From an uncultured Lachnospiraceae bacterium (GTDB lineage Bacteria > Bacillota > Clostridia > Lachnospirales > Lachnospiraceae): a stretch of DNA of 64,000 nt. Shown piece by piece: positions 1 to 11,049 of the stretch (its first letter is position 1; each line of letters opens with the position of its first letter). The position numbers and the translations under genes are program-made. The DNA lies in NCBI GenBank assembly GCA_947626915.1, contig CANQUA010000008.1, positions 135-64,134 on the forward strand, in the 5' to 3' direction. The notes under the pieces are model-generated. The model was given only the letters and a program-made list of their open reading frames with translations, was not told where the DNA came from and made no database searches.

Positions 1-1
1 G

Positions 2-274
2 CGGCTCGATATGGACGAACGCACGGTGGTTTATGATGACGAGGAAATCCCCCTGACGGCGCGGGAGTTTAATATCATCTACAAGCTGCTGTCCTATCCG
101 GGCAAGACCTTCACCCGCACCCAGCTCATGGACGAGTTTTGGGACGCGGAAACGAACACTGCGCCGCGTGCCGTGGACGTTTATATGACGAAGCTGCGGG
201 GGAAGTTTGAGAAATGTACGGAATTTGAACTCAGGACCGTTCACGGTTTGGGCTACAAGGCGGTGATACTGTGA
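2..274 (+). CDS. OmpR-family response regulator, C-terminal winged helix (5' end outside window)
   Basis: LTAREFNIIYKL...TRTQLMDEFW...AVDVYMTKLR...RTVHGLGYK; frame is open to the window edge. Confidence 0.9.
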   Translation, partial: RLDMDERTVVYDDEEIPLTAREFNIIYKLLSYPGKTFTRTQLMDEFWDAETNTAPRAVDVYMTKLRGKFEKCTEFELRTVHGLGYKAVIL

Positions 275-1371
275 GGCCGGATTCAAGGTTAAGGCGGCTT
301 CTGTTCTCTCTGAGAAGTTATGCTGCCTTTTTTCTGCTGATGTCTTTCGTGATCACCTGCTGTATGCTGCTGTTTCTGAACGCGCTGGCGGGCTCCATGG
401 AAATCGCCTATACTGAGCGCGGGATTCGTCTGGCCGCTGTCACAACATTCGTCAACGTAATCTTTCTGAGTCTGCTGTGTACCGCAATCGACGGCGTGCG
501 CCGGAAATATATGGTGGAACGCCCAGTGCGGCGGATCGTGCAGGGGGCAGAAAAACTCATGCAGGGCGACTTTTCCACACGAATCGAGCCCTATCATGGG
601 ATTGATGAACGATCCGGCTTTGACACGATCATCGACTATTTCAACCGCATGGCGGAAGAGCTTTCCGGCGTGGAGACCTTGCGGACGGATTTCATCGCCA
701 ATGTGTCCCACGAATTAAAAACGCCGCTGGCCGTCATGCAGAATTACGGAACCATGCTCCAAAGTCCCGATCTGACCGAAGCGCAGCGGATGGACTACGC
801 CAGGGCGATCACTGAGCAGTCCCGCCGTTTGGCTGACCTTATTACGAATATCTTGAAACTGAACCGTCTGGAAAACCAGCAGATTTATCCCGCCGCAAAG
901 CGGTACGATCTTGGCGGGCAGCTTGCCGAGTGCCTTCTGAACTTTGAAAGCACCTGGGAGAAAAAGAACATCGGCATTGAGACGGCTCTCGAAGAAGAAG
1001 TATTTGTGAAATCGGACGGCGAGCTTTTGTCCCTCGTCTGGAACAATCTGTTCTCCAACGCCCTGAAATTTACGGAAAGCGGCGGCACGGTGTCCGTGGC
1101 TTTGAAAACGGAGGGAGATTATGCCGCCGTCCGGGTGTCAGACACCGGCTGCGGTATTTCTCCGGAAATCGGCAAGCACATCTTTGAGAAGTTTTATCAG
1201 GGCGATACCTCTCATGCCACACAGGGCAACGGCTTGGGGCTGGCGCTGGTGAAACGGGTGGTGGATATTGTCGGCGGTACCATTTCCGTAGAGAGTGAGG
1301 TCGGAAAAGGCAGTACCTTTACTGTAAGAATCAGGAGGGCGGCGGATGGAGACATTCAAAAGAATCCTTAA
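271..1371 (+). CDS. Sensor histidine kinase (2 TM, HAMP, HisKA, HATPase)
   Basis: ANVSHELKTPL H-box, NLFSNALKF, DTGCGI and GNGLGL boxes; start overlaps regulator stop. Confidence 0.93.
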   Translation: MRPDSRLRRLLFSLRSYAAFFLLMSFVITCCMLLFLNALAGSMEIAYTERGIRLAAVTTFVNVIFLSLLCTAIDGVRRKYMVERPVRRIVQGAEKLMQGDFSTRIEPYHGIDERSGFDTIIDYFNRMAEELSGVETLRTDFIANVSHELKTPLAVMQNYGTMLQSPDLTEAQRMDYARAITEQSRRLADLITNILKLNRLENQQIYPAAKRYDLGGQLAECLLNFESTWEKKNIGIETALEEEVFVKSDGELLSLVWNNLFSNALKFTESGGTVSVALKTEGDYAAVRVSDTGCGISPEIGKHIFEKFYQGDTSHATQGNGLGLALVKRVVDIVGGTISVESEVGKGSTFTVRIRRAADGDIQKNP

Positions 1372-2260
1372 AAAGATATTCTGCCTGCCTCCTCTCCCAA
1401 CGGTTCTGGCAGCGCTTTTCGGCTACGGCTTTGTGATCGCCGTGTTTGCGTTTGATATACAGAACCCAATCCTGCAGTACGCCTCCTACATTGCTTCTGC
1501 CTATGCACTGATCGTCAGCATTACAGGGCTTGTCTATATCAATACGGCGATAGGCGGCGTCAGAAAATTTATCTCCGATCATCCGCTGATGAAAAAATTC
1601 CGCTCCACCAAGATGGGTGAAAAATACATGACCGATGTGCGTTTCCGGGCAGGAGTCTCGCTGTATCAGGGCTTTTTCATCAATCTCCTGTATATCGCCA
1701 TGAAGCTGGTATCCGGCATCGTGTACCGCTCCGCATGGTTTGCCGCGCTGGCGGTCTATTACCTTCTGCTGGCCGTGATGCGCTTTCTTTTAGTACGGCA
1801 GCTGAACATGCAGGACAAAGCGGCGGAACTCAGACGCTACCGGCTGTGCGGGATCCTGCTTTTGTTTATGAACCAGGCGCTCGCGGGAATTGTAATATTC
1901 ATGGTCCACCAGAACCGCGGATTTGAGTATCCGGGGCTGCTGATCTACGCCATGGCCGCCTATTCCTTTTATGCCGTCACCATTGCCATCATCAACATCA
2001 TCAAGACCCGGCGGCACAAAAGCCCGATTCTCTCAGCAGCCAAAGCCATCAGCTTTGTGGCGGCGCTGGTGTCCGTTCTGTCCCTGACCACTGCCATGCT
2101 CTCCCAGTTCGGCGGAGAGGACAACGCGGAATTCAACAGGACCATGACCGGCGCTGTAGGCGGCGGGGTCTGCATCATTGTGATCGGCATGGCAATCTAT
2201 ATGATCGGACGGGCAAATAAAAATCTGAAAAAAATTGAAATTAACAATTCTCGAACATAA
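1346..2260 (+). CDS. Multi-pass membrane protein of unknown function
   Basis: 304 aa, many hydrophobic segments; AGGAGG RBS upstream. Confidence 0.75.
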   Translation: METFKRILKKIFCLPPLPTVLAALFGYGFVIAVFAFDIQNPILQYASYIASAYALIVSITGLVYINTAIGGVRKFISDHPLMKKFRSTKMGEKYMTDVRFRAGVSLYQGFFINLLYIAMKLVSGIVYRSAWFAALAVYYLLLAVMRFLLVRQLNMQDKAAELRRYRLCGILLLFMNQALAGIVIFMVHQNRGFEYPGLLIYAMAAYSFYAVTIAIINIIKTRRHKSPILSAAKAISFVAALVSVLSLTTAMLSQFGGEDNAEFNRTMTGAVGGGVCIIVIGMAIYMIGRANKNLKKIEINNSRT

Positions 2261-2325
2261 CTTGAATATTTTGCAAACGGTTACCTGATACAATAACCGC
2301 GGGATCCTGAAAGGAGCAGAAGATC

Positions 2326-2709
2326 ATGGAAGAAAAGAAAGAGACTTTCACCTATACCTATTCCGCAAAAGAGCAAGAAGAAATCAAAAAGATCCGGGAC
2401 AAATACGCACCCCCGGCAAAAGAGGAAACCCCGATGGAGCAGCTTCGCCGACTTGACGAGAGCGCCACAAAGGGAGCAGCCATCGTCTCTCTGATCGTCG
2501 GGATCATCAGCGCTCTGATTTTGGGGGTTGGGATGTGCTGCACGATGCTGCCCGGCTGGGAGCGGTATTTCGTTCCGGGCATTGTAATCGGCGTGTCCGG
2601 CATCATCGGCATCATCGCGGCCTATCCGATCTACACACACATGGTAAAGCGTAAGAGGGAAAAACTTGCGCCGGAAATCATGCGGCTATCGGATGAGCTG
2701 ATGAAGTGA
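2326..2709 (+). CDS. Small 2-TM membrane protein
   Basis: AAGGAG RBS; charged N-terminus followed by two hydrophobic helices. Confidence 0.75.
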   Translation: MEEKKETFTYTYSAKEQEEIKKIRDKYAPPAKEETPMEQLRRLDESATKGAAIVSLIVGIISALILGVGMCCTMLPGWERYFVPGIVIGVSGIIGIIAAYPIYTHMVKRKREKLAPEIMRLSDELMK

Positions 2710-2720
2710 TTTTGTCAGTC

Positions 2721-2754
2721 AGACCGCTTACTGAAAACGTAGGCGGTCTTTTTC
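2721..2754 (+). terminator. Intrinsic terminator
   Basis: AGACCGCTTAC...GTAGGCGGTCT stem followed by a T-run. Confidence 0.75.
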
Positions 2755-2803
2755 TGTCATATTTATTGAAAACGCATTGATGAGGATACCGTAAAACTTT
2801 CTT

Positions 2804-3288
2804 ATGCCGCCCCACCCTTGGGACGGTCTGCTTTTTCACGGACAAAAAGCGGCTGTTCACGGACATTTCCGCAGGGCGCCCGTTCTTTTGCTATCCTGTT
2901 GTCGTGAGGATGCGCAAAGCGGCACATTGACAGCAGCAGAAAGGCAGTATCGTACTTCTATCTGTCTGCGCGGTATGCAGGGTTCGATAGCCCTTTTGGG
3001 ATAGCGAATAAAACGATCCTGCCGTCCATCGGCGCGGCGCCTTGGGTTATTATTTTTCTGTTTTGCAAAACATGTATCTGGAAACAAATCATGAATGGAG
3101 GGTATCTGATGCGTCATTTTTATTTTCGTCTCATTCTTGGGATCGTCTGGCTGGCCGCGGCGCTGTTTTGTATCACGGGCGCCGATCTCCCCTTTGCGGC
3201 GCTGTACGCCGCGTTGGGCATTCTGTTCCTGTGATCCGCCTGTTTAGTCCGGAAAAAGGTGGGAAGCAGCAAAGATGATCGGGAGTAA
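2804..3288 (+). pseudogene. Decayed membrane-protein genes (frameshift near 3001; in-frame TGA at 3232-3234 in MRHFYFRLILGIVW...)
   Basis: Hydrophobic reading continues across a -1 shift at 3001; ORF from ATG 3109 (GGAGGG RBS) is interrupted by TGA and reads on to TAA 3288. Confidence 0.45.
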
Positions 3289-3589
3289 CGAAAGGAACCG
3301 AACGGAACTTCTGAAAAAGGCTTATCTGATCATGGCGTTCGCCCTGAAACCGAAACTGCTCCTGCTGGACGAGCCTGTGAACGGACTGGATTTTCAAAGC
3401 ACCGAATATCTGTATGAGCAGATCCATCACTACCGACAATGCGGCGCCGCCCTCTTCTCGTCCCACATCCCGGAAAGCATCTGTCTTACATCTGACCGGG
3501 TGCTGGTACTGGAGCAGGGGCAGATCCGGAGAAGGTTTGCGGGACAGGAAATCGAAGCCGCCAGGATCCGGGAGGTGCTGAAAGAATGA
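3275..3589 (+). pseudogene. ABC ATPase C-terminal remnant
   Basis: LLLLDEPVNGLD Walker B/D-loop and FSSH H-loop present; no Walker A or signature motif. Confidence 0.8.
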
Positions 3590-4492
3590 ACATCCTGAAA
3601 GCCCTCTTAAAACAGCTTCTGGGCGCCAGGTATGAGCGCGCCGGAAAGAGCCTGATGGTTTATCCTGTATGTTTCCATCCACGCTGCGGGAATTGAAACC
3701 GAGATTGCTGCTTCGGTTCTCTTTCTGACGGCGGCGGCCGTTTCGGCGGGGATCCTGTGGCAGGCCTTTCATTCTCCGGGGAACGCAGACAGCATGACCG
3801 GGCTGTTTCTGCTGCCGTTTGCGGGCAGAAACATGACGTTTTCCATCGTCCTGGCCTTTACCGGCTACACGCTGGTCACAAAAACGTTTCCTGTATTGAC
3901 GCTGTTCTTTGCGGTCCATGAATGGAGCGCGGCGCAGATCGCCGTGTCACTGCTCTGCGCCTGTCATGGCTGTTTCCTGACCGCCGCCGCTCTGCCGTTT
4001 CTGTTGGGGCAGTTCGACGGGCTCCCCGTCCTGCCGCTGGGATTCGCCATCCTGTGCCTGAATACGCCGGTCTGCATATTGCTGTCCTGCGACCCGGCGC
4101 TGGAGCAGGCGGTCCGGATGCTGCCCGGACAGGCCCTCCGCTTTTGTCCCCGCTATTGCGTCTTCCTTTCTTTCGTCAACGCGGCGGTGAGCGGCGTGTA
4201 TCTGGCGAGCTGGCAATGGCGGTACGGCGGCGTGGACGGTCCGGAAATCGCCGCCGCGCTGCTGATCGCTCTGCAGAGCGCGATCCTGTCTGTCCTGCTG
4301 GAATGGTTTTGCCCGATCCGCAGCTGGAAGATCGAAAGCGATCTGTGGCAACACCCGCGCAAATACGTTGTGCCCGTCGTCATGCTGCTCCTCGCAGGGC
4401 TGATCGGTATCTGGCCCGTAAGCCTATGGATCCTGTTCTGCGCCGTTTTAGCAGAAATTTTAATCTTACCAAAAATCGCAAGGAGGATTTGA
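3586..4492 (+). pseudogene. ABC-type permease, frameshifted near 3660
   Basis: ATG 3586 overlaps the ATPase stop; MNILKALLKQLLGARYERAGKSL shifts frame into ILYVSIHAAG... and joins the 3794-4492 ORF. Confidence 0.65.
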
Positions 4493-4496
4493 ACCC

Positions 4497-4718
4497 ATGA
4501 AAAATACGAAACGCTGCCCAAAGTGCAATTCGCAGAATATTGTCCGCGTCCCCGACAACCAGAACCGCCACGCAAGCGGCAACAACATTTATACCTCAAC
4601 TTTTACGCTGATGAAAAAAATCCCCGTAATACGCTATGTCTGCTGCGACTGCGGCTATGTGGAGAACTGGGTCGAAACCCAGAGCGGACGCATGGAGATC
4701 AAACGCACTTTCGGCTAA
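4497..4718 (+). CDS. Small zinc-ribbon protein
   Basis: CPKC and CCDCGY motifs; AGGAGG RBS. Confidence 0.75.
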   Translation: MKNTKRCPKCNSQNIVRVPDNQNRHASGNNIYTSTFTLMKKIPVIRYVCCDCGYVENWVETQSGRMEIKRTFG

Positions 4719-4763
4719 AATCCCGGCAAAACCGGTTTTCATTCAAAAACCCCCTTCGCGCTG

Positions 4764-4793
4764 TCATAGCGGACCTGCCGCCGCTCATATAGT
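4764..4793 (+). promoter_or_regulatory. sigmaE-like (mother-cell) promoter ahead of the small ORF and LSR1
   Basis: TCATAGC-15 bp-CATATAGT; ATA to CATA spacing 17 bp. Confidence 0.55.
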
Positions 4794-4825
4794 ATACAGC
4801 CATTCTTTGAAAGGAGGCTGCACAT

Positions 4826-4984
4826 TTGAAAAGCAGCGAAAAGCCGGCGGCCGCAGGCGTATGCAAAAGTGTTTTCAAAAGCGGCGAAAACACGATTTCA
4901 GGAGAACAATTCACCCAAATGTGGATCCAGCTGATCAATCAGATTGAAAAGGACAGAGCTCTCCATGCTGCCCGGAAAGAATGA
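4826..4984 (+). CDS. 52-aa small protein not in the ORF track; candidate recombination directionality factor for LSR1
   Basis: AAGGAGG RBS then TTG; MKSSEKPAAAGVCKSVFKSGENTISGEQFTQMWIQLINQIEKDRALHAARKE*; function inferred from position. Confidence 0.6.
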   Translation: MKSSEKPAAAGVCKSVFKSGENTISGEQFTQMWIQLINQIEKDRALHAARKE

Positions 4985-5028
4985 CAAGCCTTTCTCCGCA
5001 GGCCCCTGCCTGCGCGGAAAAGGCTTGT
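4984..5028 (+). other. Stem-loop between the small ORF and LSR1
   Basis: ACAAGCCTTT...GCAGG / CCTGC...AAAGGCTTGT imperfect inverted repeat. Confidence 0.55.
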
Positions 5029-5051
5029 TCCGTCTCTGAGGAGGGCCAAAC

Positions 5052-6605
5052 ATGAAAGCCGCCATTTATTGCCGCTTATCCGAAGAAGACCGAAACAAGC
5101 AGTCCGAAACCGACGACAGCTGCAGCATACAAAATCAGAAGGCCATGCTGCTGCAATACACGATGGAACAGGGGTGGGAACTTTACAACATTTACAGCGA
5201 CGACGACTACACCGGCTCCGACCGGCGGCGTCCGGAGTTTAACCGCCTGCTGCGGGACGCAGAGCAGCGCAAATTTGATATTGTCCTCTGCAAGACCCAG
5301 TCGCGCTTTACCCGCGAATTGGAATTGGTGGAAAAATACATCCATGGGCTGTTCCCAATATGGGGGATCCGCTTCGTCAGCATTGTCGACAACGCGGATA
5401 CCGCAAATAAGGGAAACAAAAAGTCCCGTCAGATCAACGGGCTCGTCAACGAATGGTACCTGGAGGATATGTCTGAGAATATCCGAAGCGTCCTAACAAA
5501 CCGGCGGAAGAACGGTTTTCACATCGGCGCATTCGCCCTTTACGGTTACAGGAAAGACCCCGAACAAAAGGGACACCTGATCGTCGACGAGGAAGCCGCG
5601 GCCGTCGTCCGCGAGGTATTTGCCCTTTTCGCCCAGGGTTACGGAAAAACCGCGATCGCCCGTATGCTCAACGACCGGGGCATACCCAATCCCACGGAAT
5701 ATAAACGCCTGCACGGGCTGCGCTACCGGCAGCCGAAGATGAAAAACAGCACCCTATGGAACTATTCCGCCATTTCGGATATGCTGACCAACGAAATCTA
5801 CATCGGCAATCTGGTCCAGGGCAAATACGGCAGCGTGTCCTACAAAACAAAGCAAAACAAGCCGCGCCCGAGAAGCGAATGGTACATCGTCGAGGGGACG
5901 CACGAGCCGGTCATTGACCGGGAACTGTGGGACAGGGTACAGGCACTGGCCGCCCAGAAAGCCAGGCCTTTTGCCGGCGGCGCCATCGGATTATTCGCCG
6001 GAAAAGCCCGCTGCGCAAACTGCGGTTATGTCATGCGCTCTTCCAAAACCCACAATAAACATTACCTGCAGTGCCCCAGCCGCCATCTGTCGAAAGACGC
6101 CTGCACCGGCTCTTTCATCTCTGTGGAAAAACTGGAACGGCTCGTCCTGGACGAGCTGAACCGTCTGGCAGCGGAGTATCTGGACCAGGACGCGCTCGAA
6201 CAGAACATCCGGCTCTGCGACAATCTGCAGGACCGGAAAGCCCGCCTGCTCTCCGATCTGGCGGCCTATCAGAAAAAGATCGCGGAGTATTCCAAAGGCA
6301 TACGGGAGCTTTACATGGATAAGGTCAGGGGGATCCTGTCCGAAAGCGATTATGCAGCGCTGTCAAAGGATCTTGCCGCGGAACGCAGCCGCCTGGAACG
6401 CGTCGCCGCCGACGCAGAAACGCGGCTGTCCGAACTCGAAGCCGGCATTGCGGCGGGCGGCCATCGCCGCGAGCGAATCGAATCCTATACCCGCCTGGAG
6501 CATCTCACCCGGGAGATCGTGGAAACGCTGATCGGTCACATATCGGTCGGCAGGCGTATCCCCGGCACCAGGGACGTCCCGATCGAGATCCACTGGAACT
6601 TTTGA
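5052..6605 (+). CDS. Large serine recombinase LSR1 (resolvase, recombinase, zinc ribbon, coiled coil; SpoIVCA/CisA-like)
   Basis: YCRLS catalytic motif, DDDYTG, KTQSRFTR, THEPVI, CANCG...C zinc ribbon; uninterrupted 517 aa. Confidence 0.95.
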   Translation: MKAAIYCRLSEEDRNKQSETDDSCSIQNQKAMLLQYTMEQGWELYNIYSDDDYTGSDRRRPEFNRLLRDAEQRKFDIVLCKTQSRFTRELELVEKYIHGLFPIWGIRFVSIVDNADTANKGNKKSRQINGLVNEWYLEDMSENIRSVLTNRRKNGFHIGAFALYGYRKDPEQKGHLIVDEEAAAVVREVFALFAQGYGKTAIARMLNDRGIPNPTEYKRLHGLRYRQPKMKNSTLWNYSAISDMLTNEIYIGNLVQGKYGSVSYKTKQNKPRPRSEWYIVEGTHEPVIDRELWDRVQALAAQKARPFAGGAIGLFAGKARCANCGYVMRSSKTHNKHYLQCPSRHLSKDACTGSFISVEKLERLVLDELNRLAAEYLDQDALEQNIRLCDNLQDRKARLLSDLAAYQKKIAEYSKGIRELYMDKVRGILSESDYAALSKDLAAERSRLERVAADAETRLSELEAGIAAGGHRRERIESYTRLEHLTREIVETLIGHISVGRRIPGTRDVPIEIHWNF

Positions 6606-6636
6606 CCGCAGATCGTTCTTACAGGATCGCCCCATC

Positions 6637-6858
6637 TGCCGCCAGGTCCTCAAACAGATCGGTGATCGGATCACCCTTGGACTGAAACTCGCAGGCGCTG
6701 AAGGGCACGCCGCCCGCCGCCTGGGGCCAGATCCCGGCCGTATGGTCGATATAATAGGGACCCAGACCGGAGGCGGCGATCTGCTCCGCGCTCAGGCCTT
6801 TGGTCAGCTGATGGATGATCGATGCAATGATCTCCATGTGAGCCAGTTCTTCCGTACC
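6637..6858 (-). pseudogene. cotJC: cotJC piece B (middle 74 codons of the manganese-catalase-family spore coat protein)
   Basis: GTEELAHMEIIASIIHQLTKG...YYIDHTAGIWPQAAGGVPFSACEFQSKGDPITDLFEDLAA. Confidence 0.92.
6849..6858. repeat. att core, left junction of the LSR2 element
   Basis: CTTCCGTACC, identical to 12777-12786; followed by arm GAAGCACCGAAAATGCTCCT. Confidence 0.9.
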
Positions 6859-9705: not shown

Positions 9706-10599
9706 ATGGAAATGTGGTTATGGGCACTGAGCGGTATCATGGCAGCCGCCATTCTTTTACTGCTTCTCAAAATACATGCCCTGCAAACGGCCGCAAAGGA
9801 AATCGAGAGCGCCTTTGCCGACAGGCTCATGACTGATACCAACACGCTGATCGATCTCTCTTCCGCGGACCGGCACATGCGCCGCCTGGCAAACGGCATC
9901 AACGTCCAGCTGAGAAAGCTGCGGGAGGAACGGCGCCGTTTCGAGCAGGGAGATCTGGAACTCAAAAACGCGGTCACAAACATTTCCCACGATCTGCGTA
10001 CCCCTTTGACGGCCATCTGCGGCTACCTGGATCTGCTGGAAGAGGAGGAAACGTCCGAAAAAGCGGCCTATTATCTGCAGATCATCCGGGACCGGGCAGA
10101 GCTTTTAACGCAGCTGACGGAAGAATTGTTCCGATATTCGGTCATCCTTTCCGCCGAAAGCAGCGGGAACTGGGAGCCTGTGAATGTGGGCGGTGTGCTG
10201 GAAGAAAGCATCGCGTCGTTCTACACGGCGCTAAAAGAGCGGGACATTTCGCCAACGATCCGGATCCCGGAAAAGAAAATCGTCCGGACGCTGGACCGCT
10301 CCGCTCTGGCCCGCGTATTCTCCAATCTGCTGAACAACGCAATCAAGTACAGCGACGGCGATCTGGAGATCATCCTATCGGAAACAGGCGCGGTGATCTT
10401 CACGAACACGGCGTCCGGATTAAACGAAGTACAGGTAGGAAGACTGTTCGACCGCTTTTATACGGTCGAAGCCGCCAGGAAATCGACGGGCCTGGGCCTG
10501 GCGATCGCCAGAACGCTGATCGAGCAGATGAACGGGACCATATCCGCCGAATACCAAAATAACCGGCTGAACATTACCATCGCGCTGCCGGACGAGTAA
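9706..10599 (+). CDS. Sensor histidine kinase
   Basis: NISHDLRTPL, NLLNNAIKY, STGLGL. Confidence 0.93.
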   Translation: MEMWLWALSGIMAAAILLLLLKIHALQTAAKEIESAFADRLMTDTNTLIDLSSADRHMRRLANGINVQLRKLREERRRFEQGDLELKNAVTNISHDLRTPLTAICGYLDLLEEEETSEKAAYYLQIIRDRAELLTQLTEELFRYSVILSAESSGNWEPVNVGGVLEESIASFYTALKERDISPTIRIPEKKIVRTLDRSALARVFSNLLNNAIKYSDGDLEIILSETGAVIFTNTASGLNEVQVGRLFDRFYTVEAARKSTGLGLAIARTLIEQMNGTISAEYQNNRLNITIALPDE

Positions 10600-10707: not shown

Positions 10708-10737
10708 TTATATGGGACAAACACCGGCTCATATATT
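10708..10737 (+). promoter_or_regulatory. sigmaE/sigmaK-like promoter ahead of the small ORF and LSR2
   Basis: TTATATG...CATATATT; ATA to CATA spacing 17 bp. Confidence 0.45.
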
Positions 10738-10812: not shown

Positions 10813-11049
10813 TTGGCTGTGAAAACCAGGGAATTCGTTTATACGGGCGGCCCCGTTCCCGATCTGGACGGACCGGAATACGCGGCGTTCCTTTTGAATC
10901 TGCAAAAAGGGATCCTCCTTTCTCTGGAGCAGAGGAACCTATTGACCGCTTCGCAGCGGGAGCGCTGTCTGGCCATGCTCAAGGATCCGTGCATACAAAA
11001 GGCCAAAGCCACGTCCGCTGGGCCCGCCGGGAAAGGGGGTTCCGCATGA
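10813..11049 (+). CDS. 78-aa helical protein; candidate directionality factor for LSR2
   Basis: GAGGG RBS; stop overlaps the LSR2 ATG (ATGA at 11046-11049); function inferred from position. Confidence 0.65.
   Translation: MAVKTREFVYTGGPVPDLDGPEYAAFLLNLQKGILLSLEQRNLLTASQRERCLAMLKDPCIQKAKATSAGPAGKGGSA

Follow-up and report, generated by a model that had tools for sequence, protein, structure and literature searches.

What does a 52-codon open reading frame (ORF), placed directly before a large serine recombinase gene, do for the mobile element that encodes both? The question is raised by a 64,000-nt stretch of DNA from an uncultured Lachnospiraceae bacterium (GCA_947626915.1, contig CANQUA010000008.1, positions 135–64,134 of the forward strand), referred to below as the window, in which the small ORF, ORF52, precedes the recombinase gene LSR1 of element 1, an element inserted into the sporulation gene cotJC. 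The best reading, which we hold at about even confidence, is that ORF52 encodes an accessory factor directing LSR1 to excision in the mother cell, in a layout like that of skr and spoIVCA. This reading is favoured because of the strict linkage of the ORF to its recombinase, its retention in minimal cassettes, the type of its promoter and four precedents. We infer the directionality role solely from where ORF52 lies, its linkage to LSR1 and the precedents Skr, GirX, CD1234 and SprB; the protein would bind LSR1 and thereby affect the direction of recombination. ORF52, its promoter, the hairpins that follow it and LSR1 form the recombination module of element 1, with the following features.

4764–4793, plus strand: sigmaE-type promoter-like site, with TCATAGC at −35 (ATA at 4766–4768), CATATAGT at −10 (4786–4793) and 17 bases between ATA and CATA
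4811–4817, plus strand: ribosome-binding site (RBS) of ORF52, AAGGAGG, 8 bases 5' of the TTG start
4826–4984, plus strand: ORF52, 52 aa, TTG start, TGA stop at 4982–4984; protein MKSSEKPAAAGVCKSVFKSGENTISGEQFTQMWIQLINQIEKDRALHAARKE
4983–5029, plus strand: hairpin H1, with a 5' arm that starts inside the ORF52 stop codon (TGACAAGCC...GGCTTGT)
5030–5045, plus strand: hairpin H2, weaker than H1 and overlapping the LSR1 Shine-Dalgarno sequence GAGGAGG (5039–5045)
5052–6605, plus strand: LSR1, an intact 517-aa large serine recombinase with Resolvase, Recombinase, Zn_ribbon_recom and DUF4368 domains (Pfam)

The promoter elements, the AAGGAGG RBS and the TTG-start ORF had been described in the initial annotation, and direct reading of the DNA bears them out: TCATAGC occupies 4764–4770 and is followed by a 15-base spacer and CATATAGT, the RBS stands at 4811–4817, and the 52 codons run from TTG at 4826 to the TGA.

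ORF52 and its pairing with the recombinase

ORF52 is a real gene, conserved in hundreds of Clostridia, since its frame is under purifying selection and is kept open in relatives. Within the gap-free core of the alignment (34 codons), the proportions of synonymous (pS) and nonsynonymous (pN) differences are 0.80 and 0.31 in frame, giving a pN/pS of 0.38 compared with 0.86 and 0.76 off frame, and the alignment entropy is 1.26 at the third codon position versus 0.79 and 0.68 at the first two. For close pairs, pN/pS is 0.14–0.33. Six-frame searches of related genomes recovered small ORFs of 87, 55, 49, 42 and 38% identity, all of them immediately upstream of a close LSR1 homologue; about 15 further relatives, from many families, emerged when a profile was run against 399 genomes of the class. 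All relatives are stand-alone open frames of 39–53 aa that lie inside the element, and on these grounds the possibility that ORF52 is a fragment of an interrupted host gene was rejected. They occupy the equivalent position and are preceded there by a AAAGGAGG or AAGGGGG RBS (alignment A4). With a profile of 18 members, the family comprises 472 clusters at 90% identity, none of which has a Pfam domain and for which the sole name given by any source is 'hypothetical protein'; an exhaustive HMMER search returned 642 representatives at 50% identity, 166 of them with E < 1e-10. The family motif reads CKSVFKSGxxxxxKxQFTxKWIELINxxEK. Among 112 family sequences, W33 and N38 are invariant, and F17, K18, K32, E35, L36, I37 and E41 are at least 90% conserved.

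In a word-indexed protein search, the ORF52 sequence on its own matched nothing but itself, a tblastn search of plasmid and phage collections with a relative gave no match, and the family has no significant match in Pfam, NCBIfam, PHROGs or PDB. Likewise, TnpW (PF14202) was not matched by ORF52, nine relatives or the small ORFs of the sister clades mentioned below in Pfam scans to E = 10. The initial annotation had called the ORF unannotated, which is doubtful, since the exact 52-aa protein has already been called in a public collection (P0002). AlphaFold2 predicts for the monomer an extended N-terminus and a single helix (residues 26–50), with a predicted local distance difference test score of ~95 at residues 31–40. 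This prediction is compatible with recombinase binding and a directing role, but is not diagnostic of them. The short length, the TTG start and the missing database annotation could also be those of a chance open frame or a dead remnant, as could the appearance of two relatives, G191 and G285, which look frameshifted, and of a third, G085, an orphan without a recombinase. This explanation is effectively refuted: the frame has a coding signature, its homologues number in the hundreds and the synteny is fixed.

Having Resolvase, Recombinase and Zn_ribbon_recom domains and a C-terminal DUF4368, LSR1 belongs to the DUF4368-type (TndX/TnpX) group of recombinases and shares ~30% identity with annotated TndX at 100% coverage. 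ORF52 is located within element 1, at a distance of 67 nt before LSR1, so that both are encoded by the same element. Orthologues of LSR1 (64–78% identity) are found in 17 of the 399 genomes, and the ORF precedes every full-length orthologue at or above 64% identity for which upstream DNA can be read, in G176 as a divergent 39-aa copy below the profile threshold. The initial annotation had proposed, as a check, a hidden Markov model search for homologues upstream of large serine recombinase genes. Profile searches gave hundreds of homologues, and of 19 loci with the ORF, 17 have an orthologous recombinase gene that begins 20–180 nt downstream of it; the exceptions are the orphan remnant in G085 and the frameshifted copy in G285, which lies on a short contig. 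Moreover, the pairwise identities of the ORFs correlate with those of the recombinases (r = 0.68, a value that none of 2000 permutations reached), the ORF evolving faster (mean identity of 50% for the ORF core versus 84% for the recombinase N-terminus). As judged from these comparisons of sequence, ORF52 is the only conserved partner of the LSR1 recombinase clade. Sister recombinase clades, 39–47% identical to LSR1 (L074–L085), have other small ORFs of 36–60 aa directly upstream (e.g. MLKKETKFKITESFKSNDLDKRKETLEKLLLKIIKQSEVTGNR), for which no Pfam match was found.

Promoter and hairpins of the module

When would ORF52 be expressed? In C. difficile, the −10 boxes of sigmaE and sigmaK promoters are similar, whereas the −35 element is ATA for sigmaE and AC for sigmaK (PMC3789822). 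Because the site before ORF52 combines such a −10 box with ATA at −35, its motif can be assigned to the sigmaE type, and transcription of ORF52 would depend on sigmaE. The initial annotation had likewise proposed a sigmaE-like promoter, and the ATA and CATAnAnT boxes, their fixed spacing in relatives and their resemblance to promoters of the same genome agree with that proposal. In the 64-kb window, two copies of ATA-N17-CATAnAnT are found where 0.09 would be expected, a count reached in 0 of 100 shuffles, and one stands before each recombinase module, that of LSR1 and that of LSR2, the recombinase of element 2. Among 20 homologous loci, NNATA-N17-CATA is kept in 14, with a spacing of 17 in every one; its distance to the start codon is 19–46 nt in 13 of them and 70 nt in the frameshifted G285 copy. 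Where the flanks could be assessed, the strict motif is found in 9 of 11 cotJC-flanked loci versus 1 of 4 with another flank, an enrichment that, given the small numbers, is only suggestive. Genome-wide, a stricter pattern combined with an RBS and an ORF of at least 40 aa selects three genes, namely, spoIVA, ORF52 and one unknown gene. The spoIVA promoter reads GCATA-17-CATATATT and that of spoIID, which lies in the window, ACATA-16-CATAGAAT. A sigE orthologue above the curated cut-off is present on contig C31.

It is rather unlikely, although less so than the other alternatives considered here, that the motif is read by another sigma factor (sigmaK, sigmaA or an Orf7-like factor of those relatives that resemble integrative and conjugative elements, ICEs) or is an operator, in which case ORF52 would not be specific to the mother cell. 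In ICE-type relatives, Sigma70_r4 and HTH_16 genes stand just 5' of the module, a pemK RNA motif precedes the small-ORF promoter in one of them, and a conserved GGACnTGC in the spacer goes beyond what a bare promoter needs. However, the window's element keeps the motif though it has no such sigma gene, and ATA at −35 with a 17-base spacing fits sigmaE, sigmaK promoters having AC at 16–17 (PMC3789822). Furthermore, spoIVA of the same genome shares the pattern, as does spoIID with a 16-base spacing, and the site contains no good sigmaA match. A sigmaK promoter in particular was rejected on spacing, the AC here lying 11 bases from CATA and not 16–17.

Two further observations concern such promoters. 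On the minus strand of contig C54 (~21874), GAATA-17-CATAAAAT precedes an ORF of at least 500 aa starting MSDYRRLISYIYAYEGGVKGRN. Pfam gave no match for its first 141 residues, and it is possibly a mother-cell gene that has yet to be characterised. The pemK RNA motif (RF02913; 44.4 bits, E = 1.5e-6) lies at 9807–9887 of L089, an ICE-type relative, ~100 nt before the small-ORF promoter, and G036 and G351 have strings like GGTGAAAnTCCCGTGAG. The window lacks the motif, and Rfam gave nothing credible in it at 4300–5300.

The region between ORF52 and LSR1 is occupied by the two hairpins. The stem-loop reported in the initial annotation is indeed present as H1 (4983–5029), with a folding free energy (dG) of −34.9 kcal/mol (z = −3.9) that none of 200 shuffles equals, and it is conserved in relatives. 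Both H1 and H2 were recovered by RNAalifold on ten relatives, with a conserved H1 outer stem and compensatory changes at 7 of 16 predicted pairs; the H1 inner stems of G036 and G040 are wholly different in sequence, yet still fully paired. In relatives, H2 is a 6–7 bp stem, CTATCTC/GAGATAG, containing the recombinase RBS. In most relatives, H1 encloses a sigmaA-type promoter, (A/G)TGACA-17-TATAAT, often with an extended TG, the −35 box of which overlaps the ORF stop codon. By contrast, the window has CCCTGC in place of TATAAT at the −10 position (5004–5009); the box is likewise lost in the near relative G032, and no other promoter was called between ORF52 and LSR1 in the window. Due to the loss of this −10 box, LSR1 expression in the window probably depends on read-through from the ORF52 promoter. 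The loss of the recombinase's own −10 box suggests a possible step towards domestication.

Other roles for these structures were considered and rejected. H1 is not a canonical intrinsic terminator, for it lacks a U-run and no plus-strand terminator was called. Nor is H1 or the conserved upstream block an attachment or recombinase-binding site, the true sites being located 3' of the recombinase stop codon and, for the other end, on contig C29; in the case of H1, an inner stem that varies freely yet stays paired also fits a folded strand better than a binding site. In one relative (L053, G202:C46, ~205–381), a ~100-nt insert with two strong hairpins is found between the small ORF and the recombinase promoter, and the whole spacer folds at a dG of ~−62 kcal/mol; the insert may be a miniature mobile insertion.

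The arrangement of stop codon and hairpin raises the alternative that ORF52 acts in cis: ribosomes finishing at its stop codon would open H1 and so set the level of LSR1, and the peptide would matter little. The stop codon is in fact located in the H1 5' arm (TGACAAGCC) in the window and most relatives, H2 contains the LSR1 RBS, and LSR1 has no separate promoter in the window. Against this, it is residues and not just the frame that are conserved, as the invariant W33 and N38 and the pN/pS of close pairs attest. Moreover, in most relatives the sigmaA promoter of the recombinase is downstream of the 5' arm, and the transcript from it cannot sense ribosomes on the ORF. We therefore consider an action mainly in cis improbable.

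Element 1, the cotJC site and related elements

Is there a gene for excision to restore? Element 1 interrupts cotJC in such a way that its precise excision restores the reading frame. Three further features of the window belong to the element and its target.

1–4763, plus strand: interior of element 1, with a histidine kinase gene (271–1371), membrane and unknown genes, and a zinc-ribbon gene (4497–4718) (Pfam)
6606–6636, plus strand: attR of element 1, with the arm CCGCAGATCGTTCTTACAGGATCGCCCCA and the crossover TC (GA on the cotJC strand) at 6635–6636
6637–6858, minus strand: cotJC piece B, GTEELAH...EDLAA, between element 1 and element 2 (translation, tblastn)

On its minus strand, the window encodes CotJA, CotJB and the N-terminus of CotJC (piece A, ending LTDVGTE; 12972–12780), whereas piece C, starting AAEQKARTTYDNIL, is found on another contig (C29:35909–35718). 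Pieces A, B and C joined give a full Mn_catalase domain (E = 1.4e-49). At the DNA level, the sequence rejoined across the insertion point of element 1 matches an unbroken cotJC in at least 25 congeneric genomes. In the source genome (G000), G032 and G036, the matches of the split cotJC overlap by 8 bases. LSR1 is the right end of element 1 and points outward; the element runs leftward off the contig, and its left end lies with cotJC piece C on C29. It thus extends from ~C29:35886, across a contig gap, to position 6636 of the window and is at least 9.8 kb long.

Element 1 splits cotJC between EDLAA and EQKAR, at a GA dinucleotide. GA is also the crossover dinucleotide of TndX and TnpX. The left junction reads GTTGTTCTGACCGGGTCGCAGCA-GA-GCAGAAGG, both junctions (attL and attR) share GC(G/A)GCAGA, and the two arms form the near-palindrome GTTCTnACnGGnTCGC around GA. 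In most relatives, the arm motif GTTCTTACA follows the recombinase stop codon. Element 1 therefore carries an intact recombinase together with matching attL and attR. An exact search of metagenome contigs for the circular junction (attP) gave no match, which says little either way. Of 16 related loci, 12 abut cotJC at residues 133–136. Elements at this site are found in two orientations (alignment A5, window 6606–6660 with L041, L045, L046, L047 and L050): in seven loci the recombinase abuts cotJC residues up to 136 and is on the opposite strand, and in five the two share a strand, with the abutting residues running from 133 onward. Given the near-palindromic arms, both orientations would be explained if the central dinucleotide of attP (GA/TC) were flipped.

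The small ORF and the recombinase are the sole constant part of the related elements, which end in the order small ORF, recombinase, cotJC fragment. Their cargo differs widely. One identical ICE or integrative and mobilizable element (IME), present in four host backgrounds, carries a relaxase, MobC, ArdA, sigma and HTH_16 genes and a response regulator–kinase–ABC cassette; another element carries a restriction/TIR/Fic defence island; and a third is a minimal cassette of 3–4 kb in which the ORF is retained. The complete genome labelled Caproiciproducens sp. R1 also contains a minimal element of this kind. Element 2 of the window shows the same order of parts with an unrelated small protein. Its promoter pattern ATATGGGACAAACACCGGCTCATATATT (10710–10737) precedes a 78-aa ORF (10813–11049), the stop codon of which overlaps the true start of LSR2 (ATGA, 11046). 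The 78-aa product is not related to ORF52, and Pfam gave no match for it. Thus, both cotJC elements carry a sigmaE-like promoter, a small ORF and a recombinase in succession.

Comparison with known recombinase systems

If ORF52 is the excision factor of element 1, events in the sporulating mother cell could be pictured as follows. The sigmaE RNA polymerase would start at ATA-N17-CATATAGT and ORF52 would be made; the transcript would continue through H1 into LSR1, in the layout of skr and spoIVCA in the skin element of B. subtilis. H1, with its 5' arm beginning at the ORF52 stop codon, and H2, with the LSR1 RBS, would hold the output of the recombinase below that of the small protein. ORF52 would bind LSR1 and favour attL x attR recombination, the element would be cut out, and cotJC would be rebuilt.

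A system of this kind, in which a small mother-cell factor directs the large serine recombinase of an element interrupting a sporulation gene, is already known. Skr, a protein of 64 aa, is encoded directly before spoIVCA and has a sigmaE promoter (Suzuki et al. 2019, PMC6957869). The two loci share a small ORF directly before a large serine recombinase gene, an element that interrupts a mother-cell gene rebuilt by excision, and a mother-cell sigmaE promoter located more than 200 bp before the recombinase start (PMC6957869). They differ in that skr overlaps spoIVCA by 101 nt in another frame, whereas ORF52 and LSR1 are separated by a gap of 67 nt with two hairpins, in the target gene (sigK versus cotJC) and in the DUF4368 (TndX-like) type of LSR1. 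Furthermore, skin is a defective prophage, whereas many relatives of the ORF52 module are transferable ICEs or IMEs.

In the skin element of C. difficile, CD1234 (72 aa) requires sigmaE and SpoIIID, and a sigmaA promoter with inverted repeats on either side drives constitutive expression of the recombinase CD1231 (Serrano et al. 2016, PMC5025042). Like ORF52, CD1234 is a small factor without database similarity and with a sigmaE promoter, and the two-promoter layout is exactly that of most relatives of the ORF52 module. CD1234, however, is not adjacent to CD1231, and in the window the sigmaA −10 box has been lost. GirX, the factor of GirC in the gin element in gerE of Bacillus cereus, has 42 aa and is unannotated in some genomes (Abe et al. 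2017, PMC5595907). It, too, is a very small factor without a conserved motif, encoded by a non-phage element in a sporulation gene. By contrast, its role is proven in vivo and in vitro while that of ORF52 is a candidate one, the target gene differs, and girX is several genes away from girC. Finally, SprB of SPbeta is a small factor for the large serine recombinase SprA and has both a sporulation (sigmaE/K) promoter and a vegetative stress-induced one (PMC6957869); such dual control would also suit the ICE-type relatives. SprB and ORF52 have no sequence similarity, sprB is not placed directly before sprA as ORF52 is before LSR1, and SPbeta is a functional phage.

Several results weigh against a mother-cell excision factor. 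The strict promoter motif is absent from 6 of the 20 homologous loci, and no SpoIIID orthologue lies above the NCBIfam cut-off in the source genome (best 25.7 bits, contig C37), which is a further difference from the CD1234 system. The ORF52 family has no detectable similarity to any known directionality factor in Pfam, NCBIfam, PHROGs or PDB, including its SprB fusion chains; with the 112-member profile, the best match among PDB chains, YokA-YotN fusions (SprB) included, had E = 0.64 and the proteins matched were unrelated. An intact cotJC paralogue of 190 aa is encoded on contig C11 (32315–32884), 54% identical to what we take to be the B. subtilis CotJC sequence. Because of this paralogue, excision may not be needed for sporulation, and the split copy is possibly dispensable. 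Many carriers are ICE- or IME-like and must also excise in vegetative donor cells, so that the sigmaE promoter cannot be the whole of the control; the co-directional upstream genes and the pemK RNA motif suggest, by analogy with sprB (PMC6957869), a second route. Lastly, earlier reports describe TndX and TnpX as integrating and excising without an accessory protein (PMC2475636, PMC5704250), and the Tn5397-type tndX is nevertheless preceded by a 46-aa ORF.

The resemblance of LSR1 to TndX (Tn5397) and TnpX (Tn4451/Tn4453) extends to the same set of domains including DUF4368, to the place of the recombinase at the end of an ICE or IME after sigma and HTH_16 genes, and to a small ORF before tndX; the LSR1 orthologues differ in using one precise cotJC site. 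The 46-aa ORF with an RBS (MQENSQNKTMCIDNTKFYVISKFIGAVTLQHLIKRLIKNEVGQVVK) was located at 2234–2374 of L099, an Enterococcus faecium plasmid (NZ_CP040905.1), between an orf8-like helix-turn-helix gene and tndX. It is followed by CTGAAA-17-TATAAT and is missing from the PLSDB gene table, which is incomplete. Such tndX-linked ORFs could be either dispensable or overlooked. LSR1 might accordingly be bidirectional alone, like TndX and TnpX, with ORF52 just modulating it by blocking re-integration or by stabilising or titrating the recombinase. Its DUF4368 architecture and ~30% identity to TndX speak for this, as do the excision and integration by TnpX and TndX without accessory factors, as reported in PMC2475636, and the 46-aa ORF of tndX, which is in an equivalent position and was not found necessary. 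At ~30% identity, however, the properties of TndX need not transfer to LSR1; the tndX-linked ORF is dissimilar to the ORF52 family (hhalign probability of 0.8%); and strict retention under purifying selection, even in cassettes of 3–4 kb, argues for an important role tied to the recombinase. A self-sufficient LSR1 thus appears unlikely, and an excision factor encoded by ORF52 remains the best reading.

As a more tentative extension, which we regard as possible rather than probable, the ORF52 family and the unrelated small ORFs before the sister clades and tndX may represent the missing excision control of TndX/TnpX-like ICEs, IMEs and islands. These elements would combine a sigmaE promoter, a factor of 45–50 aa, a hairpin-enclosed sigmaA promoter and a recombinase, park in cotJC and leave in the mother cell. 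cotJC as an integration target is mentioned in passing in a preprint (bioRxiv 10.1101/2021.11.22.469490), which cites Abe et al. 2013, whereas no description of the ORF52 family, its size, its pairing with a TndX-like recombinase or its cotJC target was found in the literature searched. Directionality factors of large serine recombinases are not findable by homology, and each new one has needed genetics. If the role proposed here for ORF52 is correct, a factor of ~50 aa with more than 600 diverged variants, each beside its own recombinase and with recognisable att sites, would be a source of reversible and possibly orthogonal integrases, that is, of hundreds of natural, very small recombinase–factor pairs for reversible genome engineering. 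It would also call into question the helper-free view of TndX/TnpX-like recombinases. Furthermore, the design of skin and SPbeta would be extended to cotJC, a very common target in gut Clostridia, and it would become apparent how a spore-coat gene can be occupied by ICEs and IMEs with serine recombinases, by defence islands and by decayed cassettes and yet not be lost to the host.

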